Positions 438 through 28,440 are shown, counted from the first letter of the stretch. The stretch: DNA of 64,000 bases from Veillonella parvula (GCA_959601155.1 CAUGOU010000003.1:46162-110161); one strand, 5' to 3'. Notes: generated by a model not told the origin, from the sequence alone. Numbers and translations are program-made.

Positions 438-553
438 ATATAATCTGACCTATCATTAATGTTTATCTGTAATAATTCCATCCTTTTCATAGATTTGTGT
501 TTTAGCATAGCACAATCTTTGATATACATTCTTATAAATCTTTATTCTATCTA

Positions 554-1537: not shown

Positions 1538-1571
1538 TCTTCATCTTATGGTAAGTATTGTAATATATGCA

Positions 1572-2384: not shown

Positions 2385-2510
2385 AACACCTCTCCCATCA
2401 ACATCATTTATTTATCTCTTGAATTACAATAAGTAATGCGACAAAATAAGTTGTTTTTTAATCTCTTATTTATATATATCAAATGGTATTTTAAACCCAA
2501 GACATTTCAT

Positions 2511-3440: not shown

Positions 3441-3780
3441 TAAAATAATTCTCTCTATACGCTCAAAATAATTTTTAATCTACTTTATTCTAATATAAAT
3501 ATATGTATATTAAAATATCAACACTATGAGTCCAGAATATTTATATTGTTTTCCTTTAAACACTAATAGTATACTGAAATTACATATGTTATCAGTTCCC
3601 ACTGATTATTTTGTGGAAAAGAGAGCCTAAGTTTTATTTTATCCATCAACTACTGGATTCAAGATACCAGTGCAAACGACAAACTTCCTGACTTAATATT
3701 GGGGATGAAGTCAAAAAGATATAGAATTACTATTTTTCTGGTACTATAAATTGTACTAAGACTAGTGAAGGAGAGATACT

Positions 3781-4959: not shown

Positions 4960-4975
4960 TAACGATACATAAAAG

Positions 4976-5053
4976 AAAACCCTTCTATAGCTGATTATTA
5001 AGATTATATTCTCACGAATATGACATATCTAATCAGCATACAGAAGGGTTTTT
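4976..5053. terminator. Long hairpin between convergent genes (bidirectional terminator candidate)
   Basis: Arms AAAACCCTTCTATAGCTGATTA (4976-4997) and TAATCAGCATACAGAAGGGTTTTT (5030-5053) with one bulge. A-run before and T-run after. It lies between the MFS gene (+) and the dcuC-like gene (-). Confidence 0.6.
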
Positions 5054-5172
5054 ATTCTGTGTAATTATGATATTAATATAATTGTAGTGTTGATATAATT
5101 ATAATTTCAATATAACGATCATATTGAACTCACTATAATAACTATACTTTCAAATATATAACTAGTTTAAGA

Positions 5173-6426
5173 CTATAATAACAGTAGCATAATGACTACA
5201 GTCGCAATAATACAAGGCACGGCATTGCGTTTCGCCATTTCCATAGGGTTGATACCTGCAAGTCCCGCAATGATGATACCTGCTCCTGCTACAGGACTCA
5301 TGCTTCGACCGATACCAGCACCAATTTGAGCCATGGATCCAAGTTGCATAATACCATAACCAAAGTCTGCTGCATGCGGTGTTACAGCACCATTAAAAGC
5401 AAGAGCTGCCGCATTACCAGAACCAGAGATAACAGCCAATAAGAATGGACCAAAGGCTGCCCCGATTTGGGCGATTTGTTGAGAGTTCTTCATTCCATCA
5501 ATAAGGGCACTTGTAAGCCCGATGAGTTGCATCCCTGCTGTAAAGCATGCTGCTGCCGCCATAAGGCCAACGACATCACACATACCGTCACCAGTACCGC
5601 GGAAGAACTTCTTAACAGCGTCTGTCACATTAGGACGAACTGCAACGATACCAATCGCTGTACCGATGAGCATGGAAACGGGAACGGAAACTTCTGGAAT
5701 CACCGCTACTTGTTTACTACCAAGTACAAGCATAACAAGTGGAATGATAGGGATAATAGCATAGAAGTAATTTACCTTAAACTCTTTACCTTCCTCTACA
5801 GTATCATGTTTCATCACATACCCTGTATGCTCCTTCTTAACGATAGCAACGATATTAAGCAAAATAGCGGCCACTACGATACCGATAATGGCTTGCATGG
5901 AGAAGCTCGCAATAACTGTCATTACGTCTACGCCTGCCAGTTGCGCTACTTGAGGGTTGAACATAAGCCCTGGGCTCAAGGAGCTCCCCCATGTACCTAA
6001 GAAGATAGCAGAACCAGCCATCGCTGGGTGCACACCAGAACGAATTAAAGCCGGAATCAATAGCGCACCTACGGCAGCGGCACAGCCTGCCGCTGTAGGC
6101 AGTGCAATATTAATTAAGAATGTAATAATAACGGCACCTGGGATGATGATTTTAGTCATCTTTTTAAGCCCTGCGGAAATGAAATACACCATATGCTCCG
6201 TACATTTTGTATATTCCATAACGTAGCTAAAGCCAAGTACCGTACAGATAGTCGGTACAAGACCTGGATTTGTAAGTTCTTTTACAAAGGCTGTCGTACC
6301 AGCTCCAAGGTTGCCCCCAATAAAGCACATCAATAATCCCGATAATAATAATACGAGCCGTGTTTCAAACTGTTTAATAATAGCGATAAACGTTGCTACT
6401 ACGATAACAATACCTGTAATAACCAT
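5173..6426 (-). CDS. dcuC: Anaerobic C4-dicarboxylate carrier family (DcuC-type) transporter
   Basis: Polytopic protein of about 417 aa with DcuC-like N-terminus and length. The ORF track begins at a TTG (6456). ATG at 6426 (MVITGIV...) has RBS GGAGAG just upstream, so I prefer it. Confidence 0.6.
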   Translation of the reverse strand: MVITGIVIVVATFIAIIKQFETRLVLLLSGLLMCFIGGNLGAGTTAFVKELTNPGLVPTICTVLGFSYVMEYTKCTEHMVYFISAGLKKMTKIIIPGAVIITFLINIALPTAAGCAAAVGALLIPALIRSGVHPAMAGSAIFLGTWGSSLSPGLMFNPQVAQLAGVDVMTVIASFSMQAIIGIVVAAILLNIVAIVKKEHTGYVMKHDTVEEGKEFKVNYFYAIIPIIPLVMLVLGSKQVAVIPEVSVPVSMLIGTAIGIVAVRPNVTDAVKKFFRGTGDGMCDVVGLMAAAACFTAGMQLIGLTSALIDGMKNSQQIAQIGAAFGPFLLAVISGSGNAAALAFNGAVTPHAADFGYGIMQLGSMAQIGAGIGRSMSPVAGAGIIIAGLAGINPMEMAKRNAVPCIIATVVIMLLLL

Positions 6427-6596
6427 AACTCTCCTATCCGTGTACATAGGATGCAAGATAACTATATCCCCTCTATAAACGCTTTACACCCAATACACAA
6501 CTAACAACACTAAATACAATAGTCCTATCTATTTCTTACACCTAATAGGCCTAACAATAGTAAAAGTAATCACTTTATTATATACAGTATAATCAT

Positions 6597-6644
6597 ATAA
6601 CTATATAACTACTTATCTATATAACTACATAACTACATAACTAT
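6597..6644. repeat. Tandem 8-nt repeat ATAACTA(Y), about 6 copies
   Basis: Read directly: ataactat ataactac ttatctat ataactac ataactac ataactat. It sits immediately 3' of the stop codon of the M20 gene at 6658. Confidence 0.8.
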
Positions 6645-6657
6645 ATAAAGAAGTATA

Positions 6658-7902
6658 TTAAACAAGCTTTGTTTCTTCCAAGCTAAGTTTTCTAAGTACC
6701 TTGTCAAGTACCTCTGCACCCGTTACAATATCATCCATTTCAGCAAATTCTGCAGGATTATGACTGATGCCATCACGGCATGGAATAAAAATCATTCCCG
6801 TCGGAACTGCCTCTGCCCAATGCATCGCATCATGACCGGCACCACTCGGCATTGTCATGTACTCCACACCGACAGACTTAACAGCTTCTTCGATTTCTCG
6901 AATCATCGCCGGGTGCATCTCCACTGGATGGTCCTGTGCAATTGTTTCAATTGTATACGATAATCCACGTTTCTCGGCAGTAATGTCAATAAATTCTTTA
7001 ACAAGAGTAACTACAGAATTACGAGCTGCCTTAGATATGCTGCGAATGTCTACCCCTAGCTTCACAGCACCAGGAATGACATTCATCGCACCAGGCATAA
7101 CCTCTACAACACCAACAGTACCCACCACGGGTGGCACCTCTTGCATGGATGCAATCTCCTCGATGCCGAGGATGATTTTTGAGGCCCCACATAGAGCATC
7201 ATGACGCAAATTCATCGGCGTAGCTCCACTATGATCGGCATTACCACGAATGGTCACATAGAATCGCTCTGGCGCGGCAATACCAGTCACAATGCCAATC
7301 GTTTTCTGTTCGTGCTCCAGCACCTTGCCTTGCTCGATATGAATTTCTGTGAAAGACTTTACAGGTCGTATATATTCCATTTCTTCAATCCCATCGGGAT
7401 TTAAATTGCGACCTTTCAATGCTTCGTACAAGGAAACTCCTTGTTTATCTACCAAGCGGTGTAAGTCTTGTAATGTCAATTCACCGCGCATGGCCTTACT
7501 ACCTAGAGTAGCATCCCCAAAGCGACCGGACTCTTCGCACATAAAAGACACCACAGCGATGGTATGATCATGTTTATAGCCATCATCGGTCATGCTACGA
7601 ATTACTTCAATGGCAGACAATACGCCGACCACACCATCGTAATTGCCTCCATTGGGTACGCTATCCGTATGAGACCCCACCATGACAACTGGCAAATCTG
7701 GTTTCTTACCAATCTTATAGCCAATGACATTACCAAAATCGTCCATTTCAACGGATAAACCCGCATCAGTCATGCGATCTATAATATATTGACGTCCTGC
7801 CCAATCTGCATCGGTGAAAGCAAGGCGATTAATGCCCTCACCAGGAGCCGTCAATTGGGCCATAACCTCAAAATCCTTAACTAATCGCTCTCGTTGAATC
7901 AT
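6658..7902 (-). CDS. M20-family Zn-dependent hydrolase, allantoate amidohydrolase / N-carbamoyl-L-amino-acid hydrolase type
   Basis: Motifs GINRLAFTDADW and GSHTDSVPNGGNYDGVVGV are typical of AllC/AmaB-type M20 enzymes. ATG at 7902 has RBS GAGGTG; the track start at 7914 is a GTG. Confidence 0.75.
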   Translation of the reverse strand: MIQRERLVKDFEVMAQLTAPGEGINRLAFTDADWAGRQYIIDRMTDAGLSVEMDDFGNVIGYKIGKKPDLPVVMVGSHTDSVPNGGNYDGVVGVLSAIEVIRSMTDDGYKHDHTIAVVSFMCEESGRFGDATLGSKAMRGELTLQDLHRLVDKQGVSLYEALKGRNLNPDGIEEMEYIRPVKSFTEIHIEQGKVLEHEQKTIGIVTGIAAPERFYVTIRGNADHSGATPMNLRHDALCGASKIILGIEEIASMQEVPPVVGTVGVVEVMPGAMNVIPGAVKLGVDIRSISKAARNSVVTLVKEFIDITAEKRGLSYTIETIAQDHPVEMHPAMIREIEEAVKSVGVEYMTMPSGAGHDAMHWAEAVPTGMIFIPCRDGISHNPAEFAEMDDIVTGAEVLDKVLRKLSLEETKLV

Positions 7903-7965
7903 GTAACACCTCACAATCTATTACATCAATTACTGACAAACCATATGGTGGCTAGTCTGTAAAGT

Positions 7966-9261
7966 TTATTTTAAATAGTGAGCAGCAATTGTCCCTAATG
8001 CTACGATACCGTTTAACATATCCTCTTCATCGATATCAAAGAGCGGATTGTGATGTGGCGCTTTAATAGCAGACCCCACAACCATATAGGTCGCTCTTCC
8101 GCCACGATCGATGACACGATTCAAGAAATACGCACAGTCTTCACTACCGCCACCGCTGTAATCGAATGGCACCTCTTTAAAGATCCCAAGTGGTTCCACG
8201 ATAGCTTGTACTTCACGAGCTAAATCATCGCTGATGCGACCTGCAGGAGTTTCTCCTTGTTTTGTGATTTCAAAGGTACAATCGTGCATTTCTGCAGCAC
8301 CTTTAATAATAGTCTTAGACCGTTCAATCATGTAATCATTGATTTCTGTAGTGGCACCACGAGTTTCTAGTTTAAGCACCGCCACATCAGGCGTCACATT
8401 GCGACCTGTACCGCTTTCAAAAACACCTACATTCATGCGAGAAGCGCCTTGACTATGACGAGCGATGGCTTGTAAGTTAAGAACCGCTGTACAGCCGGCG
8501 AGCATTGCATTTTGTGCCTTTTCAGGGGAGCCACCAGCATGAGCAGAATAACCGTGGAATACCGCATCAAGTTTTGTAGTGGCTAAGAAGCCATGATCAC
8601 TACATGCAAAGCAATTGGATAATTTTTCGTTAAACCCAATATGCATGCCGAACATCAAATCCACATCATCTACTACGCCTGTTTCCGCCATCGCTTTAGC
8701 ACCGCGCACGCCTTCCTCTGCTGGTTGGAAAATAAGTTTAATGGTGCCTTTGAATTCATCCTTGTGAGTAGCCAAGTATTCGGCAAGACCTAACCCCATC
8801 GTCATATGTGCATCATGACCACAGGCGTGCATCGCTTTATCGTGACAAGAACGGAATCCTTCCTTTGTAGGCACATGGCTATCCTCTTTAGCTTCGATGA
8901 CATCGTTAGAGTCCATATCTACACGAAATGCTACTACAGGGCCTTCACCGCCAAAGTTCATAGTTGCAACAATGGCCGTTTTACCATAACTCATCTTTTC
9001 TACAAGCTCAGGATTTGCACCTTCTTCGATGGCTCGATCCATAGCAGCTTTCATGACCTCATCACTAGGCAAACCCATGCGAGAGTCTAAATCGAGTACA
9101 TCTGCGCCCAACGCCACATCATAGCCCAAAGAAATAAGCCTATCCGCTACCTTTGTAGCAGAGCGATACTCAAGCCAAGCAGGTTCAGGGTACATATGAA
9201 AATCTCGACGCATAGCGATTAACGCATCGCGCCGTTGTTGCACGAAATCTTTTACAGACAT
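7966..9261 (-). CDS. M20D-family amidohydrolase (aminoacylase / hippurate hydrolase / AbgA-like)
   Basis: 431 aa with MHACGHDAHMTMGLG metal-binding motif. ATG at 9261 is preceded by RBS GGAGGT. Confidence 0.75.
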   Translation of the reverse strand: MSVKDFVQQRRDALIAMRRDFHMYPEPAWLEYRSATKVADRLISLGYDVALGADVLDLDSRMGLPSDEVMKAAMDRAIEEGANPELVEKMSYGKTAIVATMNFGGEGPVVAFRVDMDSNDVIEAKEDSHVPTKEGFRSCHDKAMHACGHDAHMTMGLGLAEYLATHKDEFKGTIKLIFQPAEEGVRGAKAMAETGVVDDVDLMFGMHIGFNEKLSNCFACSDHGFLATTKLDAVFHGYSAHAGGSPEKAQNAMLAGCTAVLNLQAIARHSQGASRMNVGVFESGTGRNVTPDVAVLKLETRGATTEINDYMIERSKTIIKGAAEMHDCTFEITKQGETPAGRISDDLAREVQAIVEPLGIFKEVPFDYSGGGSEDCAYFLNRVIDRGGRATYMVVGSAIKAPHHNPLFDIDEEDMLNGIVALGTIAAHYLK

Positions 9262-9430
9262 AAATACCTCCGTAACAAACTAATAATCACGTATACATTT
9301 ACTATATGAATAGATAGGTAAATAGTCAACTAAATGGCACATGTATACAGTATCTAAAATATACTGTATGTTATAACAAAAAACACATATACCACGAAAT
9401 GATTTCTGTGATATATGTGTGCTTATCAAT

Positions 9431-10384
9431 TTATTCTAATATTGTTTTATTCAGTTTTGTCAGTACCTCTCGTTTAATAGTTCGTTGTCTATCCCAAGCA
9501 ATGATAACAACGGTAGCAATAATCATAGCCATACCAATTAGCCCTAATAGACTAAATTCATTTCCTAAAAAAGCCCACCCAAAGAAAGCCGCCGAAATAG
9601 GTTCAATAGATGACAAAATAGATCCTGGTACTGCCCCAATTCGTTTAACCCCTTCTAAATAGGCATTAAAAGATACTATCGTCCCTAGGAATATGACATT
9701 GAAACAACCAATAACAGTCCATACGTCCCACACTGCATATGAATTCGGTTGATGGAATAATATCGCGGCTACAATACCACTAATAAGCATCCCAAACCCT
9801 ACAATAGGCAATGTGCCATATTTGTAGAGTAAATCAACAGGAGAAATACTATATACGGCTACACCCACAGCAGATAAAAGCCCCCATACGAGAACCGCCA
9901 TTGGGAAGCTTTCAATAGAAAGACCATCACCATTCCCCATTAAACAAATGGTCCCCACTAAGGCCAGTATAACAGAAACCATTTCCCCCTTGGATGGTCG
10001 TTTACCATAGCGAACCAGCAGGTAAATAATAATCATAGACGGCGCCAGATATTGTAATACCGTTGCAATGCCAGCTCCAGCTAAAGCAATGGATCTGAAG
10101 TATGTATATTGGCATAATGCCATTCCAAATACGCCAAAAATAATGAGCCCTAGCGTATCCTTTATACTATGAAATACATTAAAGATAGAGTTTCCAAATC
10201 TAAACCATGCATAAATAACAGTTAGTAAACCTGCTGTAATCAATCGCATAGTTACTAGCCATTCCAAATTCATATCTCTAAAATTGCTTAAGAACTGTAC
10301 GGATGCACCTGATACGCCCCATAAAACAGCCCCTAATAGAGTTATAATAACACCAATAACTTCATATTGTTTCATGCTAGTCAC
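9431..10384 (-). CDS. EamA/DMT-family transporter
   Basis: 317 aa with 10 hydrophobic segments and a two-EamA-repeat architecture. GTG start at 10384 overlaps the upstream stop by 8 nt; an alternative ATG is at 10375. Confidence 0.7.
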   Translation of the reverse strand: MTSMKQYEVIGVIITLLGAVLWGVSGASVQFLSNFRDMNLEWLVTMRLITAGLLTVIYAWFRFGNSIFNVFHSIKDTLGLIIFGVFGMALCQYTYFRSIALAGAGIATVLQYLAPSMIIIYLLVRYGKRPSKGEMVSVILALVGTICLMGNGDGLSIESFPMAVLVWGLLSAVGVAVYSISPVDLLYKYGTLPIVGFGMLISGIVAAILFHQPNSYAVWDVWTVIGCFNVIFLGTIVSFNAYLEGVKRIGAVPGSILSSIEPISAAFFGWAFLGNEFSLLGLIGMAMIIATVVIIAWDRQRTIKREVLTKLNKTILE

Positions 10385-10853
10385 CGAGCAAAGATACGTG
10401 AACTTTCACAACCACCTTACGGATTTTAATAGGTTTATCGTTTACAGCAAGCAAAGGCCGATGAACATCAGAGGGGAAGAATACAGTGTAGTACCCTTCT
10501 GGGCAATGGATTTGCCCTTCATCAACCGCTTCATTAGGATAAAAATAGCAATCTCGATCTGGATAGGACTCCACAGGTTTAACGAGACCTTTATCTACGA
10601 AAAAGCCCATGTTTTCCTCGCCGCTCACCATAAATTGGATATCTACATAATTACGGTGCGATTCCGGTTTTGTAGCTTCAAATAGTTTTGTTTCTACATC
10701 GTCTACGTTAGCATACATCATGTCGCCTTCAATGGCATGACGTCCTCCAGGCAATGTTTTCAAATCTGTGTTTTTCAAGAAATCCAAAGCGCGCACGATG
10801 GCTTTAGGATAGCCCATTTTTGTATAATCTGCGGTAATACTAGAGAAAAACAT
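10377..10853 (-). CDS. YhcH/YjgK/YiaL (DUF386, EbgC-like) family protein
   Basis: About 158 aa. The N-terminus MFFSSITADYTKMGYP..ALDFLKNTDL..LPGGRHAIEGDMMYANV is typical of the family. ATG at 10853 has RBS AAAGGA. Confidence 0.65.
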   Translation of the reverse strand: MFFSSITADYTKMGYPKAIVRALDFLKNTDLKTLPGGRHAIEGDMMYANVDDVETKLFEATKPESHRNYVDIQFMVSGEENMGFFVDKGLVKPVESYPDRDCYFYPNEAVDEGQIHCPEGYYTVFFPSDVHRPLLAVNDKPIKIRKVVVKVHVSLLGD

Positions 10854-10957
10854 ACACAATCCTTTCACAATATCTATGGATATGGCACCACAATAAACTA
10901 ATTATATTACCTTTTATGTTAGCACATATATACATAAAGAACTAGCTATTCTCTTAT

Positions 10958-10993
10958 GTAAAAGCCCTCCATACGCTACATATATGGAGGGCC
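10958..10993 (-). terminator. Intrinsic terminator downstream of the EF-G paralogue
   Basis: Arms GCCCTCCATA (10964-10973) and TATGGAGGGC (10983-10992). On the minus strand they are followed by TTTTAC. Confidence 0.7.
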
Positions 10994-11037
10994 TCAGTAA
11001 AATACTATTCAAATTTATGACTTTCGTCAATTATTAC

Positions 11038-11085
11038 ACTATGAAATTGTTACAGTATTAAATTGTTACATTATGCAATTGTCTA
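11038..11085. repeat. Tandem 16-nt repeat, about 3 copies, in the 3' region of the EF-G paralogue
   Basis: actatgaaattgttac / agtattaaattgttac / attatgcaattgtcta. It lies between the stop codon (11136) and the terminator (10993). Confidence 0.7.
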
Positions 11086-11135
11086 TTCAGTTGTAATGAT
11101 TCAAACTGTATTAGATACAGCATGTGGCCATTACC

Positions 11136-13202
11136 TTATTCTTGGGTTTTATGAGCAGCGATAATTTCTTCCGCTTGCTTATGGGGAACCTCTTCATAGG
11201 TATAGAACTGACGGTTAAATACACCTTGTCCTTGTGTAATGGAGCGCAATGCAGTCACATAATCGGACATTTCAGCCAATGGTACTTGTGCTTTAACAAC
11301 GGAAATACCTGTTCTTTCACTTTGTTCCATGCCTAATACACGACCTCGACGGCTATTCAAATCACCCATGATGTCGCCCATGAAAGCATCTGGTGCAAAC
11401 ACGTTGACTTCATAGATTGGTTCTAATAGGACTGGTTTCGCCTTAGGAATCACATCCTTGATAGCCTGTGACGTAGCTACTTTAAATGCTAACTCTGAGG
11501 AGTCTACACTGTGGTAAGATCCATCCAAGAGTGTCACTTGCACGCCAATCATAGGATATCCTGCAATTAGACCTTTATCTAGGGTTTCTTTGGCACCCTT
11601 TTCCACTGCTGGTATGTATTGTTTAGGTACAGCACCACCAAAAATTTTGTCTACGAATGCAAATTCGCTACCATCATATAATGGATCCACTTGAATCTTA
11701 ACGTGACCATATTGACCATGACCGCCACTTTGTTTCTTATACTTAGACTCGGTTTCAGCAGAGCCTTTAATAGTTTCGCGGTATGGAATATATGAAGCCA
11801 CAAGTTTAGCTTGTACGCCGTATTTACGGTCCATTTTGTTGAGGATATGCTCAAGATGTACTTCGCCCATACAATCGATTTGTAATTGGCGAGCTTCAGC
11901 ATTTTTCACTACTACGCAAGTAGGATCTTCTTCCGCCACTTTAAGAACAGCACTAGCTAATTTTTCCTCCTCACCTTTTTTCACTGGCTCCATAGCCACA
12001 GTGTATAGAGGTTGAGGGAAACGAATAGCATCGTATGTGACTTTAAAGTCAGGAGCCGTTAATGTATCGCCGGTCTTAGCATTGGCCAATTTCGGTATCA
12101 CTACGATATCGCCAGCTTTAGCAGCGGATACAGGGATTTGTTGCTTCCCAATAAGGGTAACCATCTTGCCCCATTTTTCTTCTACATCTTGGTTCACATC
12201 AAAGAGGCGATCCCCTTCTTTCAGTTCACCAGAGAAGATACGTACAAAGCTTTGTTTGCCTGCGAATGGGTCTAACAATGTTTTAAATACGAATGCAGTT
12301 AATGGTTTATCTACATGTACAACACATTGTTCGCCGGTTTCCGCATCAGTTGCGGTCATCACTTTTTTAGTTGCATCCGGCATGTAACGGATCATACGAT
12401 CCAATACTTGATCTAAGCCAATACGAGATGTGGCACTGCCACACATGATTGGGCACACACGGCCACTAATCATCCCTTCACGCAAGCCTTGGCGGATTTC
12501 CTCTAAGGATAATTCTTCGCCTTCTAAATATTTTTCCAACAACTCATCGCTACCTTCAGCCGCGGCTTCTACGGTCATTTCCCGAATTTCTTGAGCCTTT
12601 TCGATAAGGTGAGCTGGTACAGCGACCTCTGTTGGTTGGCCGTCCTTATAAGTAAACGCAGTCATTTTTGCTACGTCTACAACGCCTTCAAAATCGGCGC
12701 CTTCACCGATAGGAATCTGCAACGGCATGATGCCTTTGCCAAATAATTCCCGCATTCTTTCAATAGTACCGAAGAAATCAGCACCATCGACATCCATTTT
12801 ATTGATAAATGCCATGCGAGGCATTTGTAATTCCACTGCATAATCCCATGCGCGAACTGTGTCAGTTTCTACACCAGATGTGGAGGAGAGCACCATCAAC
12901 ATGCCATCGCACGCACGCAAAGCGGCACGAACTTCGCCATGGAATTCATTATAGCCTGGAGTGTCTATGAAGTTAACCTTATGGTCATGCCACTCACATG
13001 GCGCCGTGCCCAATTGAATAGTTACATTACGTTTAATTTCTTCCGGTTCAAAGTCCATAATATGTTTATTATCTTGACCTTTACCTACGAAATCAACCGC
13101 ACCAGAAGTTAACAACAAGGATTCAACAAGAGCTGTTTTGCCCGCACCATCGTGGGAAACAACAGCAACGTTTCTAATTTTATCACTACTGTACTCTTTC
13201 AT
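11136..13202 (-). CDS. Elongation factor G paralogue (EF-G2-like translational GTPase)
   Basis: 688 aa. G1 motif reads SHDGAGKT, G3 is DTPGY, and the domain IV loop is SGGHGQYGHV. RBS AAGGAGG precedes the ATG. The gene is not in a str-operon context. Confidence 0.8.
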   Translation of the reverse strand: MKEYSSDKIRNVAVVSHDGAGKTALVESLLLTSGAVDFVGKGQDNKHIMDFEPEEIKRNVTIQLGTAPCEWHDHKVNFIDTPGYNEFHGEVRAALRACDGMLMVLSSTSGVETDTVRAWDYAVELQMPRMAFINKMDVDGADFFGTIERMRELFGKGIMPLQIPIGEGADFEGVVDVAKMTAFTYKDGQPTEVAVPAHLIEKAQEIREMTVEAAAEGSDELLEKYLEGEELSLEEIRQGLREGMISGRVCPIMCGSATSRIGLDQVLDRMIRYMPDATKKVMTATDAETGEQCVVHVDKPLTAFVFKTLLDPFAGKQSFVRIFSGELKEGDRLFDVNQDVEEKWGKMVTLIGKQQIPVSAAKAGDIVVIPKLANAKTGDTLTAPDFKVTYDAIRFPQPLYTVAMEPVKKGEEEKLASAVLKVAEEDPTCVVVKNAEARQLQIDCMGEVHLEHILNKMDRKYGVQAKLVASYIPYRETIKGSAETESKYKKQSGGHGQYGHVKIQVDPLYDGSEFAFVDKIFGGAVPKQYIPAVEKGAKETLDKGLIAGYPMIGVQVTLLDGSYHSVDSSELAFKVATSQAIKDVIPKAKPVLLEPIYEVNVFAPDAFMGDIMGDLNSRRGRVLGMEQSERTGISVVKAQVPLAEMSDYVTALRSITQGQGVFNRQFYTYEEVPHKQAEEIIAAHKTQE

Positions 13203-22362: not shown

Positions 22363-22860
22363 TTAACGGTATGCTACGCGCTCAGGCTGCATGTCGTGGA
22401 AATGAAGGCGCTCTTTTGCCGTCTTTTCCCACTCAGTACCAGGCTTGCCGTAATTTGCGTATGGATCGATGGACAAACCACCGCGCGGCGTGAACTTACC
22501 CCACACCTCGATATATTTAGGATCCATCAACTTCATAAGATCTTTCATGATGATGTTTATGCAATCCTCGTGAAAGTCCCCATGATTGCGGAAACTAAAC
22601 AGATATAACTTCAAAGACTTGGACTCTACCATTTTCTTATCTGGCACATAAGAAATATAGATTGTGGCAAAGTCTGGTTGACCTGTCATAGGACACAAAC
22701 TTGTGAACTCAGGGCAATTAAACTTAACGAAGTAATCATTGTCAGGGTGTTTATTATCAAACGCCTCCAACACCTGTGGCGCATAATCAGTAGGATAATC
22801 GGTCTTGTGACCTAACATCGTTACCCCTTGTAACTCTTTTTCAGATCTGCCAGATGCCAT
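22363..22860 (-). CDS. queF: NADPH-dependent 7-cyano-7-deazaguanine (preQ0) reductase QueF, unimodular type
   Basis: Motif [22 protein letters not shown] and catalytic-Cys region [19 protein letters not shown] at 22860 (MASGRS...) has RBS AAGAGG. The track start at 22905 adds 15 unlikely residues. Confidence 0.85.
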
Positions 22861-22914
22861 AAGGAACCTCTTTCTATAAAATATAAATTCTGCGAAATCA
22901 TTCAATATAAATAA

Positions 22915-22923
22915 ATTATATCA
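22915..22923 (-). promoter_or_regulatory. Extended -10 element (TGATATAAT) upstream of queF
   Basis: Minus-strand TGATATAAT lies about 55 nt upstream of the queF ATG. I saw no clear -35 element. Confidence 0.35.
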
Positions 22924-23012
22924 TACGTAGTGCTAAAAAAGTCCTCCTCCAGTTCTAGTTAAACAGTTAGTAGCAACTAATGCATCTAATAACATGCGCT
23001 CAAATATCAAAT

Positions 23013-23094
23013 CCACAAAAACTAAAAGGACACTATGGCTCCACCCATTCAGTAATACCGCTCACTGAAGATTAGACTATAGCGTCCTTTTTTA
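23013..23094 (-). terminator. Structured terminator after the toxin/immunity pair
   Basis: Outer stem AAAAGGACACTAT (23024-23036) with ACTATAGCGTCCTTTT (23077-23092). An inner hairpin TTCAGT...ACTGAA is enclosed. On the minus strand it is followed by TTTTAGTTTTTG. Confidence 0.6.
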
Positions 23095-23162
23095 GATTCA
23101 TATACCTTATATTAGCATTATACGTTAATCAATAGAACCTGCTATATGTACGGTCAGAATAT

Positions 23163-23504
23163 CTAATAATAGGTCAAAATATATAAATATATGTATAAAG
23201 CTACTAGAAATAACCAAACATATACGCCAGCTTTAAAGTTAAACTGATATTTTTCTACTTTATCACTTTCAAACTCATTATTTTTAAGCATAAAGTACAT
23301 TCCAACTAAAGAAATCCCCATACAAAATATCCACCAAAACAACATAGTAAATGGAGATATTAAATTACGTATGAAAAATATTCCAAACCCGAGTACTAAG
23401 CTAAAAGTATAGATAATTCGAGCTAAGCTAAGCTTACCTTTATGCGTAATAAGTTTGTATATGAGGAATATAATACCAAGTATTATAATCAGATCTTGAT
23501 ACAT
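23163..23504 (-). CDS. Small membrane protein, candidate immunity protein for the upstream toxin domain
   Basis: 113 aa with 3-4 hydrophobic helices. Its ATG overlaps the toxin stop (TAATG, 23502-23506). It is AT-rich like the toxin gene. Confidence 0.55.
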   Translation of the reverse strand: MYQDLIIILGIIFLIYKLITHKGKLSLARIIYTFSLVLGFGIFFIRNLISPFTMLFWWIFCMGISLVGMYFMLKNNEFESDKVEKYQFNFKAGVYVWLFLVALYIYLYILTYY

Positions 23505-25567
23505 TACTTATCTACATCCTTTTTCAAATTAAATTTAATTTCATCTTTAATGCGATCGCCAAATGTTGCACCAGCAACACCAACAGCAAAAGCTCCTACA
23601 GGACCAGCACCACTTCCTACAAGTCCGCCACCTAATCCAGTAGCTACAGGAATTAAATCAGCTCCCCAGGCCTTTGCTAGTTCACGCCCACTGTATACTT
23701 GATAGTCCATATATAAGTCCTTAGCTAAATAACCAATTAAAACAGGTCCTCCAGTTCGAGAAACAGTACGTGCAAATTTTGATGCCTTTTCAGCATAATG
23801 AACATATCCAACCCATGGTTGATTTCCTACTTCAGATAGCATATTTTGAGCAACAGACTTGCCTAAATCATCTTTAGTCCAAACAAATCCAGGTTTAATT
23901 ATAGTCTTAGGAGTTATATTTTCATTACGCTTAACAAAGCCTAATTTCTCTCTATCCAACGGAGTAAGATTTTTGTCATAATATCGTCTAATTCCTATCG
24001 ATTTAAATATAGAGCTTCGTCCATTATGTGGTAACCCAAAAGTTTTAAATGATGATTTATAATCTCTATACCCATTTTCATTACGATCTAAGGTTGGTAA
24101 ATTACCCATTTTAAAATAATACCCATGCCGTGCAAACAAAGCTCTTACAGCATTATAATACTCTGATACCTTACTAGGATTATTAACACCGACTTCATCC
24201 TTAATTATTTTATTGTGTAATACATACATCTCATTAAGAATTTCACGAGCTTGTTGAAAATAAATTTCTTTCCACTTTGCGTCTATTGCTTCGCGCTCTT
24301 CATTACTTTTTGCTTTTGAATATTCCTGTTTATATAATTTTATTTGCTCATGTGTCAAATAATTATTCTGTGTAGCAGATAATGAAATACCAGAACCCAA
24401 TGAAGAGTATGAAACTGTATTACCTAATATTGCACTAGCAATTTTATATACATCAGAATTATCAACATACTTACCATTAGCGTCTACCGTACTATTAGGA
24501 TGTTTAGCTAATTCTTTAGCAATAGCTCCTACCATCACCTCATTAGCACTAGATACTGTAAACCCTTCTAAGCTAGAGCCTCCAGCCATATTAGAGACTA
24601 CTGCACCGAAACCGCCATGTAAGGCAACTTTATAAATACCGCCATCTTTCCATTTATCAGCTTCTTTTTGGTATCGTTTTTTTAGAGCTTCATCAGTAGT
24701 AGTGGCGGCTTTTTCTTCATACTTCTGAGCTTGCTTCATGGCTATATCCCCAATTAATTTAAAACCTTCATCAGATACAGCATTAACGTATTCCATACGC
24801 TCTTTTACATCAGCCTTATCAAATATTGGTTTAATACTATTGAGTGCGTCTTCAGTATCTCTGTTAATAGTAGTAAGAGGTTTACCCTCTACTTCTACTA
24901 ATATAGTATCACTAATAGCAGATTTCGTGGTAGATTGGGCCTCATCTGATACAGGAATAGAGACTACTGGAGATAGCCCTAACGGGTTGATTTTACCGAG
25001 AATACCTTTTGCTGTCAATCCAGATGTATTCATGGCTAAACCAGATTTCTTAGCCTTATAAGATGCTTCATTATGAAGGTCTTCCATAACTAGAGATTTG
25101 GTAGATAGCTTATTTTTTTCAGGTGTAGCCTTACTAGTTATAGTAGCACCTTTTAATGTTGTCGTATTGCCAACAGTAATATTTACACCATCATTACCTG
25201 CATAAATACCAGATTGATCTGTAACACTTTTATAAGTACTATCAATATTACCTTTTACATTAACACCATTAATCGTAGGTTGAGATATAAAGTTTGCGCC
25301 AGAGATAGAAATACCCTTGTTCTTAGATGTTTCATGATAGATTCGACTGTCTTGCAAGCTCTCTACAGTCAGATTATTACCTACTTTCGCCGTTACACCT
25401 CGTCCAGAGATAGTAGAACCGATAAGGTTAGTATCATTGCCACTTTCGATAGATACGTTATTAGTACCTACAACATGTGTCCCTGTATGAGTAGTAGTAT
25501 CTTCTATGCCATTTTCTGACCCTTTATAAGCGGATGCCGACCAGCCTACGAGCCCACCAGTTCTCAT
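23504..25567 (-). CDS. 5'-truncated filamentous-haemagglutinin / CdiA-type exoprotein fragment: repeats, pre-toxin region, TQNN boundary and a novel C-terminal domain. The open frame actually extends to 25774
   Basis: FHA-type repeats (VTAKVGNNLTVESLQDS, GVNITVGNTTTLKGATITS). Conserved pre-toxin segments (DLHNEASYKAKKSG, RDTEDALNSIKPIFDKADVKERMEY, ALHGGFGAVVSNMAGG). VENN-like TQNN at 24362-24373. C-terminal glycine zipper ATGLGGGLVGSGAGPVGAFAVGVAGATFG. I found no signal peptide, TPS domain or RBS. Confidence 0.7.
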   Translation of the reverse strand: MRTGGLVGWSASAYKGSENGIEDTTTHTGTHVVGTNNVSIESGNDTNLIGSTISGRGVTAKVGNNLTVESLQDSRIYHETSKNKGISISGANFISQPTINGVNVKGNIDSTYKSVTDQSGIYAGNDGVNITVGNTTTLKGATITSKATPEKNKLSTKSLVMEDLHNEASYKAKKSGLAMNTSGLTAKGILGKINPLGLSPVVSIPVSDEAQSTTKSAISDTILVEVEGKPLTTINRDTEDALNSIKPIFDKADVKERMEYVNAVSDEGFKLIGDIAMKQAQKYEEKAATTTDEALKKRYQKEADKWKDGGIYKVALHGGFGAVVSNMAGGSSLEGFTVSSANEVMVGAIAKELAKHPNSTVDANGKYVDNSDVYKIASAILGNTVSYSSLGSGISLSATQNNYLTHEQIKLYKQEYSKAKSNEEREAIDAKWKEIYFQQAREILNEMYVLHNKIIKDEVGVNNPSKVSEYYNAVRALFARHGYYFKMGNLPTLDRNENGYRDYKSSFKTFGLPHNGRSSIFKSIGIRRYYDKNLTPLDREKLGFVKRNENITPKTIIKPGFVWTKDDLGKSVAQNMLSEVGNQPWVGYVHYAEKASKFARTVSRTGGPVLIGYLAKDLYMDYQVYSGRELAKAWGADLIPVATGLGGGLVGSGAGPVGAFAVGVAGATFGDRIKDEIKFNLKKDVDK

Positions 25568-25914
25568 ACCAATATTAGCAGAGACATTCCAGCCACTAGA
25601 CTTACTATTTGTTTCAATACGTTGCGTATTTGAACCTGCCTCTAGATTGATAGTATTGGAAGCAGCTAATTGTACATTCTTCCCTTTGATTTGCTCTCCA
25701 ATTGCAGTAATATTACCTTTAATTGAATCTGCACTATTAGCATGAAGTAAAATAGTTCCATCAGAATAGCATAATTAAAGTTTTGTTGTAAAGTATAAAT
25801 ATATTTCTTCTTTTTAGTTTTATAAAATTAAAATTTATAATATAATATTCATATATCCATGTTATAGTACCCATTATGATTTATCGTTACGTTTTATACA
25901 CAATGGAGGTTACC

Positions 25915-26646
25915 ATGAAATTAAAACAACTGATTTTGTCCGGTATAGCCGTTGGAGCGCTAGCTTTCACAAGCGGAATGGTACAGCCTGCACAGGCAGC
26001 AGTCGGTATGGATACGCCTGCACCGACGCAAAGTTTAAAGAGACCTGCATCAGTAACGACACAGCATTATATCAATGTAGATGGCATATTATTAGAGCCC
26101 ATAGATAATAAACCAAATGTTATCTATGTTGACGGTCAGCCACTCGTAGCGTTACGTCAAGTATCAGAAGCATTAGGTTATAAAGTATCTTGGGATACCC
26201 CTACAAAAACGGCATTAATCGATATGAACATTGCTACCTTAGCGGTACAACCAGACTCTAAACAAGTCGTGCGCAAAGGTAAACTGCAAATCATCAACCT
26301 TGATACATCCGAATCTTTACTCCCTGCAGCACGTATGGTAGACGGAATTCTATATGTAAGTCCGAACGCATTCAAACTCTTGTTAAATGATGTAACCATC
26401 AATAAAGACGAAATATATATCGTTCCACAACAAAGTCAATTGGCCACTGATTCAAACACGCAAAAAGGCAAACGAAACGGTATCGAAACATTTTTACCGG
26501 ATCAAGGAGATAAAGTAATTCCATACGAAGAAAAGGAAACCAAAGAAAAGAAACCTCTTATTACGGTAAAACGAACTAACACCAAAACAGATACCAAAGA
26601 CACAGAAAATACCGAATATGTACGCTCTAACGGATTAAACAGATAA
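25915..26646 (+). CDS. Secreted protein with a copper-amine-oxidase N-terminal (stalk-like) domain and a K/T/E-rich tail
   Basis: RBS GGAGG (25905-25909) then ATG at 25915. Signal peptide MKLKQLILSGIAVGALAFTSGMVQPAQA. VDGQPLVALRQVSEALGYKVSWDTPTKTALI is typical of the Cu_amine_oxidN1 fold. Confidence 0.55.
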   Translation: MKLKQLILSGIAVGALAFTSGMVQPAQAAVGMDTPAPTQSLKRPASVTTQHYINVDGILLEPIDNKPNVIYVDGQPLVALRQVSEALGYKVSWDTPTKTALIDMNIATLAVQPDSKQVVRKGKLQIINLDTSESLLPAARMVDGILYVSPNAFKLLLNDVTINKDEIYIVPQQSQLATDSNTQKGKRNGIETFLPDQGDKVIPYEEKETKEKKPLITVKRTNTKTDTKDTENTEYVRSNGLNR

Positions 26647-26814: not shown

Positions 26815-28440
26815 TTATTGCTTACTGTTTTTTGACAGATTATCTAAGCTATCTTTTGCCGTATCCATACTCCGCTTCAGATCCTTCATGGATTCTTTCA
26901 TGTCCGGCGCTATAAGCCCAGATTTGTCGATGCCCTTTGCAGAGTCAGAGGCACGTCTACTATTTTCCCTGGCTTGTTTCATATCGTCTTTAATGCGAGT
27001 CATATTTTCATCAATTTCGTCAAATGACTCATCATACAAAATAAAATTACTGCCCCCGTGGGACGTAATATTTAGCGGCCCCATCGTGAGCTGTCCATCA
27101 TCGATACGCAAAGCATCCGTAGTAATAGTAGTGATTTTCGTATGTACGTTCACATCGCTAAAGGATAAATGCCGTCCTTTATTGTGAAAGTTTCCCGTAA
27201 TGCTTTGAATCGGAATTAGCATATAGTGCCCTTCACCAGACCAGAAGTTACCCCATACCTCCATGTCTCGAGGTTGGCCTTCACTTTTAAAGTTCAAATT
27301 TGCCGATACGGGCACGAGAAACTCAGGAGCCTTGAGGGCTACACTGCTATCTAAATCCTTTGCTACGCCTGTAATCGTATAGGCTCGAGTGTCCAAATTA
27401 TATACACCTTTAGCCTCCAATTTACCGCTGTATACATTGGCACTAACGTTTTCAAAATTTAAAATACCATCTTGGTACGTCACATCTCCTACTACATTCT
27501 CAAAAGTAAGTGCAGGAATGCGTAAAATAGGCATCGTCACACGACCTTTAGCTAAGGGACGATTAAAATCACCTGTTACCTTTGTAAGCAAGGTCATAGC
27601 ATCATGAATATTCTCACCAAAGCCTAGTGATGATGGATCCACCCCTTTCACATCAAATTGTAGATCCAGTTGAGGCATGCGATGCTTTAAAACATCCTTT
27701 AAATCTACACGACCTTTTAATACGAGACCATCCCCTATGGCGGTACCACCAAATTTGCCCGTCTCCATATCGATACGAATCGCTCGCTTACTATCAAGAT
27801 CAATTTTTGAGTTTACATTCTTTATCACATAATGGCGATTTCTATTAAAAACCTCTAACTGACTATTTCTAAGTGTAATCTTAAGATCTAAATGTTGACC
27901 TTGCCAATTAAAGTTACGTACTTTCTTACCTAGTTCCTCTTGCCGTTCTTGTGTGGTCTTTTTAGGTGCTTTTGGACGAGGCTCTACCTCATTAATTGGT
28001 TTATTTACATCTGGAGATATGGGCGCGAAATCCAACCGATTATTATCGTCCAAATCAATGACTATAACCGCATCATCTAATTCAATGCCCTTGATAGCGG
28101 AGGACTTAAAATTACGTGTCACCACATCCCACATATTGACGCGGACTTTCCCACTTGGTGCATTGAGCAACTCATGCCCTTCTGGGTCCTTCCAAACAAG
28201 GCCTGTAAAAGTCAAAGTTCCCCATGGTGTAGCAGATAAACTTTCAACAGTAACCGTACCGCGCATCATAGTTTGTCGAGCCATAACCTCATTAAAAATA
28301 ACGCCCATTCCACGACTAGCAATGGTTGCTAGTACAAAGACTATAATCGCTCCAATGGCAAGAAAGGCAGCAATGCCTTTTAGGCCTTTCTTATACAATT
28401 GTTTATATTTTGTCCAATAAGAACGTATATAATGTTTCAT
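26815..28440 (-). CDS. N-terminally anchored envelope protein, AsmA/TamB-like (tentative)
   Basis: 541 aa with a single N-terminal TM (GIAAFLAIGAIIVFVLATIA). A long beta-rich region then follows, beginning GTVTVESLSATPWGTLTFTGLVWKDPEG as in AsmA-like proteins. The C-terminal tail is charged. Confidence 0.4.
   Translation of the reverse strand: MKHYIRSYWTKYKQLYKKGLKGIAAFLAIGAIIVFVLATIASRGMGVIFNEVMARQTMMRGTVTVESLSATPWGTLTFTGLVWKDPEGHELLNAPSGKVRVNMWDVVTRNFKSSAIKGIELDDAVIVIDLDDNNRLDFAPISPDVNKPINEVEPRPKAPKKTTQERQEELGKKVRNFNWQGQHLDLKITLRNSQLEVFNRNRHYVIKNVNSKIDLDSKRAIRIDMETGKFGGTAIGDGLVLKGRVDLKDVLKHRMPQLDLQFDVKGVDPSSLGFGENIHDAMTLLTKVTGDFNRPLAKGRVTMPILRIPALTFENVVGDVTYQDGILNFENVSANVYSGKLEAKGVYNLDTRAYTITGVAKDLDSSVALKAPEFLVPVSANLNFKSEGQPRDMEVWGNFWSGEGHYMLIPIQSITGNFHNKGRHLSFSDVNVHTKITTITTDALRIDDGQLTMGPLNITSHGGSNFILYDESFDEIDENMTRIKDDMKQARENSRRASDSAKGIDKSGLIAPDMKESMKDLKRSMDTAKDSLDNLSKNSKQ

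Follow-up and report, generated by a model that had tools for sequence, protein, structure and literature searches.

The locus under study lies in a window of 64,000 nucleotides of Veillonella parvula DNA, i.e., the whole stretch analyzed, and is a deletion allele: a single ancestral 6.6-kb event via a 9-bp microhomology took out the whole of tpsB together with tpsA up to codon ~1595. The lost part of tpsA comprises the signal peptide, the TPS domain and most of the filament, and the allele retains the tail of the FHA-2-type repeats together with the pre-toxin region, a T(Q/E)NN boundary, a two-part C-terminus (CT) and an overlapping gene for a 113-aa membrane protein (Table 1). As an explanation of the whole, we consider it likely that this is a deletion allele of a tpsB–tpsA–immunity locus (CDI-type, type Vb) with a non-exportable ionophore-type toxin and its immunity retained, and immunity is probably the retained function in this strain.

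Table 1 Features of the deletion allele and its surroundings, in window coordinates.
Feature	Position	Strand	Remarks
Right flank: queF	22363..22905	-	Right border of the whole tpsBA/orphan array, conserved in all loci
Recombination block: C-terminal three-quarters of toxin module and immunity gene	23142..23888	-	blastn
Immunity-type gene	23163..23504	-	113 aa; ATG overlaps toxin stop (TAATG)
Truncated tpsA/cdiA-like gene	23504..25774	-	756 open codons and stop; codons ~1596 to end of the full-length gene (translation, blastn, tblastn)
Terminal toxin module	23507..23956	-	aa 607-756, 150 aa; DYxxYSGxxLxxAWGxDxxP motif, then glycine zipper
CT N-terminal part, entry-domain-like	23957..24361	-	aa 472-606; predicted helical
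TQNN, VENN-like boundary motif	24362..24373	-	aa 468-471
Conserved pre-toxin region	24374..25318	-	aa 153-467; 79-95% protein identity with tpsA or orphan copies of other strains
Fil_haemagg_2 (FHA-2-type) repeat domain, N-terminally cut	25319..25741	-	aa 12-152; Pfam PF13332
First possible start codon, ATG	25565..25567	-	No convincing Shine-Dalgarno upstream (...gctaatattggtATG)
Deletion junction, 9-bp microhomology ATTCTGATG	25759..25767	-	Common to tpsB leader and tpsA codon ~1596
Promoter-like element	25763..25792	-	TTTACA-18 nt-TATTCT with upstream TG; kept from tpsB upstream region
In-frame TAA closing the frame upstream	25775..25777	-	Part of former tpsB 5' leader, not tpsA
Left flank: divergent Cu_amine_oxidN1-domain gene	25876..26646	+	Constant tpsB neighbor in full-length loci

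The ORF listing gives a 687-aa ORF (23504..25567, minus strand), which an earlier note, made from the sequence alone, had taken for only the part of a longer frame that follows the first ATG. Translation bears this out: upstream of that ATG the frame stays open for 69 further codons (LCYSDGTILLHANS...), none of them ATG, GTG or TTG, as follows from the listing beginning an ORF at ATG. The note had read these codons as haemagglutinin repeat already, and the Fil_haemagg_2 model indeed matches the 756-aa frame from aa 12 on (E=4.1e-30, profile positions 32-169 of 170), so that the repeat begins before the ATG and is itself N-terminally cut. Of the models suggested in the note, this one was matched, whereas PT-VENN and DUF637, like the TPS domain (PF05860), had no match in the frame at E<=0.1, and the pre-toxin region matches no Pfam model. 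The frame is also, as claimed, devoid of a signal peptide, a TPS domain and a convincing ribosome-binding site, the gene upstream of it is divergent, and no TpsB/CdiB gene lies nearby: in tblastn with full TpsB and TpsA queries, the sole match in the 64-kb window was 25765-24110.

That this is a 5'-truncated TpsA/CdiA-type polymorphic toxin gene, as the note had proposed, was confirmed by full-length orthologues at the same site in other strains. In L006, the tpsA at the site encodes 2442 aa, in which the TPS domain (E=3e-47) and Fil_haemagg_2 are both recognized, and the tpsB encodes POTRA and ShlB domains. Both genes are intact in L007, L009-L011 and L013, with 568 codons for tpsB and 2368-2491 aa for tpsA, and in L017 tpsB is intact and tpsA is cut by the contig end; overall, tpsB is present at this site in L006-L011, L013 and L017. 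The flanks are constant throughout the loci, with the Cu_amine_oxidN1-domain gene on one side and queF on the other. The cassette had further been described as AT-rich relative to its surroundings; the difference is real and smaller than quoted, with a GC content of 34.7% for the cassette against 43.6% for the his genes and 39.9% for the whole window, the lowest figure (26.9%) being that of the immunity ORF by itself. In other strains, full-length tpsA (36.7%) is as low in GC as the cassette.

Comparison with the full-length loci placed a 6,602-bp deletion between 61 nt upstream of the tpsB start and tpsA codon 1596, its length being measured in L011 coordinates from the left microhomology copy (3397) to the right one (9999). 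By blastn, window 28999-25750 corresponds to L006 167-3416 and window 25765-24338 to L006 10001-11428, and by tblastn aa 1597-2148 of the L011 TpsA correspond to window 25765-24110. Full-length loci share the left-flank sequence ...CTTTAATTATGCTATTCTGATG without a difference, and the first three codons of the frame (L-C-Y) come from the tpsB leader. The junction string CTATTCTGATGGAAC is identical in 11 fetched loci besides the window, from at least 9 separate samples, and the deletion is therefore real and old; the remnants that bear it show protein differences of up to ~8%. Misassembly is in general common for repeat-rich adhesin genes, and the note had named a sequencing or assembly error near 25775, hiding a long upstream ORF, as a way in which its reading could fail. 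We reject this: no support for it was found, the identical junction recurs in different samples and assemblers, the longest contig of a fetched locus reaching 442 kb, and the sequence on either side is collinear with full-length loci, which leaves an artefact with a negligible probability.

The note had also placed a VENN-like boundary at TQNN, with a variable C-terminus behind it, and 35 distinct boundary strings, once aligned, agree with this. The family consensus is SAT(Q/E/K/T)NN followed by (Y/F/W)LTH(E/D), some full-length alleles having SATENN, and homologues diverge directly after it: DNA homology to full-length tpsA stops at 24338, and protein end-points cluster at aa 475-489. Judged by sequence, SAT(Q/E/K/T)NN-YLTH is the putative functional analogue of VENN in this family; in the window frame the PT-VENN and DUF637 models have no match. 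Alternative C-termini behind the same constant region include a barnase-type RNase (PF00545; P0083), and a barstar-family ORF follows the L007 tpsA. Proteins ending in the barnase-type RNase share homology through the CT N-terminal part, on to aa ~627; here, helices are predicted with a pLDDT of 56-75 over the first ~80 residues.

The terminal toxin module belongs to no Pfam family. It recurs behind many different N-termini. Searching 1.84 billion representatives returned 42 relatives, which were checked for Pfam domains; one relative is a full-length TpsA, whose homologous tail matches Gly-zipper_Omp weakly. The window's own glycine zipper (GGGLVGSGAGPVGAFAVGVAGATFG, ~23558-23656) follows the conserved DYxxYSGxxLxxAWGxDxxP motif, and Gly-zipper models did not match the module even at E<=1; P0221, a distant relative, scored 18.5 bits against the Pfam glycine-zipper models (Gly-zipper_Omp PF13488 and relatives), whose cut-off is 25. 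Hydrophobicity of the tail is modest (Kyte-Doolittle maximum 1.45). A first AF2 model was poor (pLDDT 41); later, residues 70-150 of the module were modelled as three long helices (pLDDT 66-80), five were not recovered, and the structure had no match in the PDB. From its composition, this moderate-confidence model and the membrane-type partner, we infer that the 150-aa glycine-zipper module may be an ionophore-like, membrane-inserting toxin.

The ORF whose ATG overlaps the toxin stop, recognized as immunity-type in the note, encodes a protein with four TM-like segments (Kyte-Doolittle >=1.6, centred near residues 12, 37, 60 and 101). An ORF of this family directly follows the toxin module in 15/16 cases (13 loci), every copy of the toxin module found upstream of such an ORF directly adjoins it, and the identities of the paired proteins co-vary (rho=0.60, p=0.02). 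The exact 113-aa protein is found on at least 999 contigs, whereas the truncated toxin in its exact form is found on 95. Of eight junction-bearing alleles compared, five have the 113-aa protein unchanged (100%), and it is invariant within its type; the one junction carries two CT/immunity types, the immunity proteins of the alleles of the window's type and of L027-L029 being 48% identical. Since the ATG overlaps the toxin stop and is preceded by a weak, distant GGA only, translational coupling is plausible.

The note had further supposed the cassette to be silent. For the immunity gene this is doubtful, because the deletion leaves a promoter-like element of tpsB that V. parvula and V. rogosae-type loci (L006-L013) have in common in conserved form and whose -10 overlaps the junction. 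In a consensus scan, the number of such matches in the region was not above chance; the element may nevertheless act as a promoter, as its sequence suggests. The truncated toxin is non-secretable because signal peptide, TPS domain and tpsB are all missing. With the toxin no longer exported, the strain would cease to attack its neighbors through this locus, and the retained function would be immunity against neighbors still delivering this toxin family, the four-segment protein presumably neutralizing an ionophore-type toxin within the membrane. The immunity gene would probably be transcribed from the tpsB promoter region left by the deletion and translated by coupling to the upstream frame, and the remnant would remain a recombination substrate, its CT/immunity module apparently re-swapped since the deletion.

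Comparison across strains, as suggested in the note, showed that CT/immunity swapping at this locus is real. Within a longer match, the recombination block has 97.8% identity to the final orphan module in L008, and it has 95.7% identity to the second orphan of L004. The CT/immunity module appears to combine main-gene and orphan sequences in a mosaic. Between same-junction alleles, the constant region can reach a dS of 0.28 (remnant dS 0.14-0.28), yet toxin, immunity and downstream genes are identical. Neither stops nor frameshifts were found in eight diverged junction-bearing alleles, although a pseudogene in decay would be expected to gather both; in some alleles the frame has even acquired an ATG further upstream (707/708-aa forms). 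Compared pairwise, the alleles give an omega of about 0.15-0.21, and omega is ~0.30 for substitutions private to junction-bearing alleles (22 synonymous, 22 nonsynonymous, p=1e-4). An intact frame with low omega fits immunity as the only function imperfectly, and suggests either import by recombination from functional copies or selection on the remnant. Given the frequent recombination that the mosaic divergence indicates, low omega can be inherited from functional donor genes. In this naturally recombining oral and gut commensal, selection may also have kept the frame itself, because its translation is needed to express the immunity gene or as a landing pad that captures the CT/immunity modules of neighbors through homologous recombination (an "immunity collector" without a weapon); for this we see the two CT/immunity types on one junction, the absence of stops in eight alleles and an omega of ~0.3, and hold it as a tentative possibility.

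The locus has been inactivated by at least six independent routes, the window deletion included: a second, separate deletion (L004, L016, L018), IS30-like ORFs/insertion (L021), a tpsB nonsense mutation (L008), a tpsB frameshift (L006) and a tpsA nonsense mutation (L005). Such repeated inactivation suggests that selection to keep the whole system is weak or fluctuates, and speaks for a neutrally decaying pseudogene, with neither toxin part nor immunity gene retaining a function. However, the deletion is old, as the dS between alleles shows, and both ORFs are nonetheless undisrupted, the immunity protein is invariant within its type besides being extremely widespread, and no degraded allele has lost its last CT/immunity pair beside queF, all of which makes neutral decay very unlikely. 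We regard it as unlikely that the truncated protein is made from the ATG at 25567 and has its own function, either in an intracellular toxin-immunity addiction pair that would stabilize the region or in the coupled expression of the immunity gene. The ORF, intact in all eight diverged alleles with the earlier ATGs and low omega values described above, and the overlapping start of the immunity gene with its weak GGA would fit such a role; but the ATG is preceded by no recognizable ribosome-binding site, the low omega can come from functional donors under frequent recombination, and colicins of the pore-forming type reportedly have no toxic effect when they act from the cytosol (PMC11630599). 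A beta-helical filament fragment without a secretion signal also has, to our knowledge, no known cytoplasmic role.

The note itself had favored a classical orphan cassette, i.e., a silent, 5'-less CT/immunity reservoir for a full-length tpsA elsewhere in the genome. Other strains (L025, L007, L008, L016) do have true orphans of this family, which lie downstream of full-length tpsA and carry 200-900 codons of repeat and pre-toxin sequence; L025 has a classical orphan array, with orphans of 935 and 699 aa, and the L007 orphan has 884 codons. The near-identity of the toxin/immunity block to the terminal orphan of L008 points the same way, as do the two TPS pairs reported in V. parvula DSM 2008 (PMC5491611), and a reservoir under selection whenever it is drawn upon would be in keeping with an intact frame of low omega. 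Against this, no full-length tpsA or tpsB lies upstream at the locus or in the 64-kb window, so that no partner is visible in cis and exchange would need the DNA of other strains, and the other Veillonella repeat-protein family has a constant region of only 42-45% identity, too little for homologous exchange. Orphans lie downstream of a full-length cdiA, whereas the left end of the window fragment adjoins the tpsB leader and not the immunity gene of a preceding module, and the fragment is the main locus's own remnant; a classical orphan is thus distinctly unlikely.

As a deletion remnant with retained immunity, the locus can be set against known systems. CdiB/CdiA/CdiI loci (E. coli EC93, UPEC 536, Burkholderia, Neisseria TpsBA) resemble the full-length Veillonella locus in having a TpsB with POTRA and ShlB domains, a TpsA of ~2400 aa with TPS and Fil_haemagg_2 domains, an NN-ending motif before a polymorphic C-terminus, the immunity gene next and orphan modules after the main gene. 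They differ from the window, which has lost tpsB and, from the N-terminal side, two thirds of tpsA, and from Veillonella in motif (VENN versus SAT(Q/E)NN-YLTH) and host, here a diderm Firmicute. Orphan cdiA-CT/cdiI modules and tpsC cassettes, the latter described with IORFs in Neisseria meningitidis (Arenas et al. 2013, PMC3848433), share with the window a 5'-less toxin fragment without translation or secretion signals, some constant sequence, a boundary motif, an intact immunity gene and evidence of exchange with main genes. However, these cassettes lie downstream of an intact main gene, and the window fragment, joined to the tpsB leader, has no full-length partner in cis. An orphan CdiI was found to be expressed and protective with the orphan CdiA-CT not made (Poole et al. 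2011, PMC3150448), and immunity collection has been proposed as the benefit of such cassettes (PMC3150448, PMC3848433). The remnant is of an ordinary type, and is well documented here.

Ionophoric CdiA-CTs consist of an entry domain and a helical membrane domain, the latter carrying a putative glycine zipper, and their CdiI is a hydrophobic membrane protein (Halvorsen et al. 2024, PMC11630599). The window resembles the CdiA-CT(EC93) ionophores in architecture, with a two-part CT, a predicted helical N-terminal module that in Veillonella also stands before a barnase-type RNase, a glycine-zipper module modelled as helical and a small, very hydrophobic, putatively multi-pass immunity protein, but the five-helix bundle of the former stands against three moderate-confidence helices in the window module. 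Among glycine-zipper, membrane-depolarizing effectors of other secretion systems, the T7SS LXG toxins TelE and EsxX and Caulobacter CdzC/D are reported to need a C-terminal GxxxG-type zipper for toxicity, and membrane-associated immunity is common; their delivery systems and N-terminal domains differ from the window protein, to which they have no detectable homology.

Veillonella ranks among the most abundant genera in the human mouth and gut, and we know of no experimental work on competition between its strains; tools for genetic work are available in V. parvula SKV38 and V. atypica OK5. The note had held contact-dependent inhibition to be uncharacterized in Negativicutes, which stands insofar as no experimental CDI or growth inhibition was found in the literature searched, and needs amending insofar as a computational catalogue of 2012 (PMC3482391) covers polymorphic toxins linked to T5SS/TpsB in Veillonella and Selenomonas, and CdiA-related proteins of Negativicutes have been mentioned (PMC8510554). 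Between the Cu_amine_oxidN1-domain gene and queF, Veillonella thus has a polymorphic tpsBA toxin locus at one fixed site, with interchangeable tips (RNase/barstar, glycine-zipper/membrane immunity) and orphan arrays, which offers a concrete test case for contact-dependent inhibition in a diderm Firmicute. Its repeated disarmament, with CT/immunity pairs kept, would be expected if the weapon is dispensable or costly and immunity still useful. The analysis also flags a family of 150-aa putative toxin modules that no Pfam model covers, and for annotation, the 687-aa "hemagglutinin repeat protein" becomes a truncated tpsA remnant and the 113-aa ORF a putative immunity protein.

The truncated haemagglutinin-repeat element is real and well resolved, and comparison with other genomes indicates that it is the 3' part of a tpsA gene left behind by a deletion. 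Translation of 23100-25900 bore out the earlier note's reading that the frame stays open for 69 codons (LCYSDGTILLHANSADSIKGN...) before the first ATG, up to a TAA at 25775-25777, and none of these codons is ATG, GTG or TTG. The claims that haemagglutinin repeat already precedes the ATG and that the frame lacks a TPS secretion domain both held in a Pfam scan of the 756-aa frame, where Fil_haemagg_2 matched aa 12-152 (E=4e-30) and the TPS, PT-VENN and DUF637 models gave no match. Since the Fil_haemagg_2 match enters at profile position 32 of 170, at aa 12, the repeat domain begins ahead of the ATG and is cut short at its own N-terminus. An NCBIfam scan of the same frame added nothing to the Pfam result, and Fil_haemagg_2 was the sole significant match in the Pfam and NCBIfam scans of the frame, the parts of the variable C-terminal region (CT) and the immunity ORF; weak matches to DUF995, Mkg_C, DUF3754 and DUF6861 were dismissed as noise. 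Nor does a tpsB gene lie nearby, as had been noted: tblastn with full TpsB and TpsA returned no other match in the 64-kb window.

The missing sequence is present in other genomes. At eight homologous loci (L006-L011, L013 and L017, L006 being the complete genome of V. parvula f34), ~6.7 kb of extra sequence separates the Cu_amine_oxidN1-domain gene from the position at which the window frame starts. This stretch holds tpsB (POTRA_2, POTRA_3, ShlB) and the 5' part of tpsA (TPS domain, E=3e-47; Fil_haemagg_2). Complete tpsA genes encode 2368-2491 aa; L007, L009-L011 and L013 carry intact copies of both genes, and in L017 tpsB is intact and tpsA is interrupted by the contig end. Aligned to L006 by blastn, the window yields two collinear blocks that overlap by 16 bp in the window, 28999-25750 against 167-3416 (96.6% identity) and 25765-24338 against 10001-11428 (91.9% identity). 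The left flank (...CTTTAATTATGCTATTCTGATGATACG), the right flank (...GGTGCTATTGATTCTGATGGAACT) and the window (...CTTTAATTATGCTATTCTGATGGAACT) show that the join passes through a 9-mer. In L011 coordinates the deletion measures 6,602 bp; it starts 61 nt ahead of the tpsB GTG and ends at codon 1596 of the 2422 in tpsA. Given this position, the in-frame TAA, like the opening L-C-Y codons, derives from the tpsB leader and tpsA proper begins at SDGTILLH, which explains why all protein alignments begin at residue 4.

An assembly error at the frame start could produce a similar picture; we rejected it because the identical junction occurs in many assemblies. The junction string was found in the window and in 11 fetched loci (L001-L003, L022-L024 and L026-L030), which cover nine or more separate samples, assembled with different programs, and whose remnants differ from that of the window by up to ~8% in protein sequence. 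One junction recurring in so many samples behind remnants this diverged identifies the deletion as a single ancestral event rather than an artefact; it is both real and old. The earlier note had instead proposed a silent orphan cassette. Orphans are 5'-less CT/immunity fragments downstream of a full-length tpsA, and the window element does not occupy that position, being the decapitated main gene. It would nevertheless act much like an orphan module, as a toxin fragment that cannot be exported beside a usable immunity gene. Foreign origin, which low GC might suggest, was also rejected. The cassette is indeed more AT-rich than its flanks, as claimed, but the contrast is smaller than had been stated (GC is 34.7% in the cassette and 26.9% in the 113-aa ORF; the window as a whole has 39.9% and the his genes 43.6%). 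Full-length genes of other strains are equally low (36.7% for tpsA, 37.2% for tpsB), so that low GC goes with the gene family and does not point to recent import.

Homologues came from Veillonella (V. parvula, V. caviae, V. rogosae and uncultured Veillonella), and the identical 687-aa protein was present on 95 contigs. A single gene order (his operon, cstA, 541-aa gene, divergent Cu_amine_oxidN1-domain gene, truncated gene, 113-aa ORF, queF, 286-aa gene, cysK) was seen in 23 of the 24 contigs read, i.e., in all 23 with enough flank. A scan with the constant region, limited to one genome per species, returned 17 loci, 16 of which were from Veillonella or had the window's flanking genes; L020 (Hydrogenophaga borbori, 34% identity) was set aside as an unrelated distant match. 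The 541-aa ORF is conserved beside the locus in all strains; its product carries a hydrophobic segment at the N-terminus, matched no Pfam family and, in NCBIfam, gave just a GspN-like match below threshold. The hairpin-like element is kept in L006 despite wholly different CT/immunity content. It was not called by a simple terminator scan, an Rfam scan of 22800-23200 (the interval between the immunity gene and queF, with the element) found no family, and it could be an array terminator or a queF leader element.

Coordinates of features in the window and at homologous loci (L-numbers)
Feature	Sequence	Coordinates	Strand	Remark
ATG-started ORF, 687 aa	window	23504..25567	minus	from ORF listing
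113-aa immunity-type ORF	window	23163..23504		
9-mer ATTCTGATG at the join	window	25767-25759		
Retained tpsB upstream element, TTTACA-18-TATTCT	window	25792-25763		extended -10 TG; conserved
541-aa ORF	window	26815-28440	minus	
Hairpin-like conserved element, AAAAAGGACGCTATAG...CCATAGTGTCCTTTT	window	23023-23090	minus	between immunity ORF and queF
tpsB upstream region	L006-L013	~3370-3466		
Gene with the window's junction	L027	3001-5127		
Second deletion	L004, L016, L018	L011 ~3359 to 8483		1270-1403 codons left
Second-deletion remnants	L004; L016; L018	752-4564; 2447-6658; 851-3050		
IS30-like allele	L021	1193-2305		IS30-like ORFs (HTH_38) at left point of second deletion; 348-codon remnant
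tpsB CAA>TAA, codon 222	L008	3458-5164		
tpsB A7>A6 frameshift	L006	3459-5164		sequencing error or phase variation possible
tpsA CAA>TAA, codon 481	L005 (V. caviae DSM 20738)	5210-12265		
Second-family orphan fragments	L007; L005	12903-16552; 12947-14431		

The proposed VENN-like TQNN boundary found support in the homologues, which diverge just after it, though the Pfam PT-VENN model gives no match. For 120 relatives, homology breaks off mostly within aa 475-489, just past TQNN (468-471), and DNA homology to full-length tpsA stops at 24338. The boundary motif, drawn from 35 distinct strings, is SAT(Q/E/K/T)NN followed by (Y/F/W)LTH(E/D), with SATENN in some full-length alleles and SAVDNN followed by WLTHDD in the most distant relatives. 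Beyond it, the CT of the window is bipartite (aa 472-606 and 607-756). The first part is predicted to be helical, and homology with RNase-ending proteins continues to ~aa 627; some relatives end in a barnase-type RNase (PF00545), and a Barstar-family ORF follows tpsA in L007 (E=1e-8). The second part, the toxin module, recurs behind many different N-termini; among 1.84 billion representative proteins it had no more than 42 relatives, including a full-length TpsA (P0221) whose homologous tail matches Gly-zipper_Omp below threshold. The module has a core DYxxYSGxxLxxAWGxDxxP and then a glycine zipper. AlphaFold2 reached a pLDDT of 41 for the whole 285-aa CT (44 homologues), a model that was discarded for this reason, and 58 for the 150-aa module (36 more diverse sequences), in which only residues 70-150 were usable, modelled as three long helices (pLDDT 66-80). 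Foldseek against the PDB returned just generic helical bundles, none below E=2, and a sequence profile search of the PDB gave only weak matches of glycine-zipper composition (tape-measure protein, E=0.007; SlyB, E=0.3).

As the earlier note described, the ATG of the next ORF overlaps the toxin stop. Its 113-aa product has four TM-like segments, showed no change in five of the eight junction-bearing alleles that were compared, and is found as the exact sequence on at least 999 contigs. The toxin module directly precedes 15 of 16 ORFs of this family (imm113; 13 loci), and module and imm113 identities co-vary across pairs (Spearman 0.60, p=0.02). CDI ionophores are paired with hydrophobic membrane CdiI proteins (PMC11630599), and by analogy we infer a putative membrane-depolarising toxin with a membrane immunity protein. 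A classical array is seen in L025: tpsA (2323 aa, TPS domain), imm113, a 935-aa orphan, imm113, a 699-aa orphan, a 132-aa ORF and queF. A second, distant family of truncated haemagglutinin-repeat fragments (constant region 38-39% identical) also occurs as orphans in the same array; the 884-codon fragment of L007 has a weak Tle1-like phospholipase match and a 334-aa ORF downstream of it, and the similar proteins P0104-P0120 (1000-1240 aa) are all 5'-truncated too.

The remnants are themselves mosaic. Window 23888-20000 matches the last orphan module of L008, together with its downstream flank, at 97.8% identity. For the toxin/immunity block (23888-23142), identity to the second orphan of L004 reaches 95.7%, whereas aa 479-628 resemble the first module of L004 and L016 (~85% nucleotide identity). 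Between the window and L022, both with the junction, the constant region shows a dS of 0.28 (dN/dS 0.15), the toxin module is 99.3% identical in amino acids, and immunity gene, queF, 286-aa gene and cysK are identical; against L026, also with the junction, the constant-region dS is 0.14 (dN/dS 0.19), with an identical left flank and a very diverged right flank. Such mosaic divergence between junction alleles indicates that recombination tracts often cross the remnant. CT/immunity swapping across strains, which the earlier note had suggested looking for, is seen in L027-L029, which carry the window's exact junction with a different CT/immunity type (immunity protein 48% and toxin module 86% identical), so that the module was exchanged after the deletion. 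Eight diverged junction-bearing alleles contained no stop codons or frameshifts. Private codon variants in the constant region comprised 22 synonymous, 22 nonsynonymous and no stop changes (omega ~0.30, p=1e-4 against neutrality), with 8 synonymous and 8 nonsynonymous in the CT. Since only 16 non-deletion copies were sampled as potential donors, import from unsampled functional genes can yield the same signal, and mosaic divergence confounds dN/dS as a test of function because recombination with functional copies can lower omega. We therefore do not take the low omega as proof of remnant function.

Transcription driven by the retained tpsB upstream element would begin within the remnant and extend through to the immunity gene. 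No convincing ribosome-binding site precedes the ATG at 25567; a GGA lies 12 nt upstream of the immunity ATG. A promoter and terminator scan, which cannot carry weight alone, gave 16 promoter-like sites against 14.6 expected and zero terminators. For E. coli EC93, transcription of the orphan region and a working orphan CdiI have been described, with no orphan toxin produced (PMC3150448). From the TTTACA element to the GTG, V. parvula and V. rogosae-type genomes share a highly conserved tpsB upstream sequence; conservation ends further upstream, and the leader holds a TCATGA...TCATGA repeat that may be an operator.

The window element belongs to an already known kind of toxin locus, with a toxin module that has no Pfam family. 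Orphan modules and tpsC cassettes are familiar from earlier work (PMC3150448, PMC3848433), a computational catalogue of 2012 included TpsB-linked polymorphic toxins from Veillonella and Selenomonas (PMC3482391), and PMC8510554 mentions CdiA-related effectors in Negativicutes. Two TpsA/TpsB pairs were reported for V. parvula DSM 2008, and its outer-membrane proteome contained one of them (PMC5491611); the TPS genes of strain SKV38 are not discussed by Béchon et al. 2020, and the literature searched held no experimental CDI study in Negativicutes.

The locus has also been inactivated in other ways (see table). Point inactivations are often present in strains that retain the full-length locus. 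A second, independent deletion may be IS-mediated, as the IS30-like ORFs of L021 sit at the same left point. All degraded alleles retain at least one CT/immunity pair beside queF.
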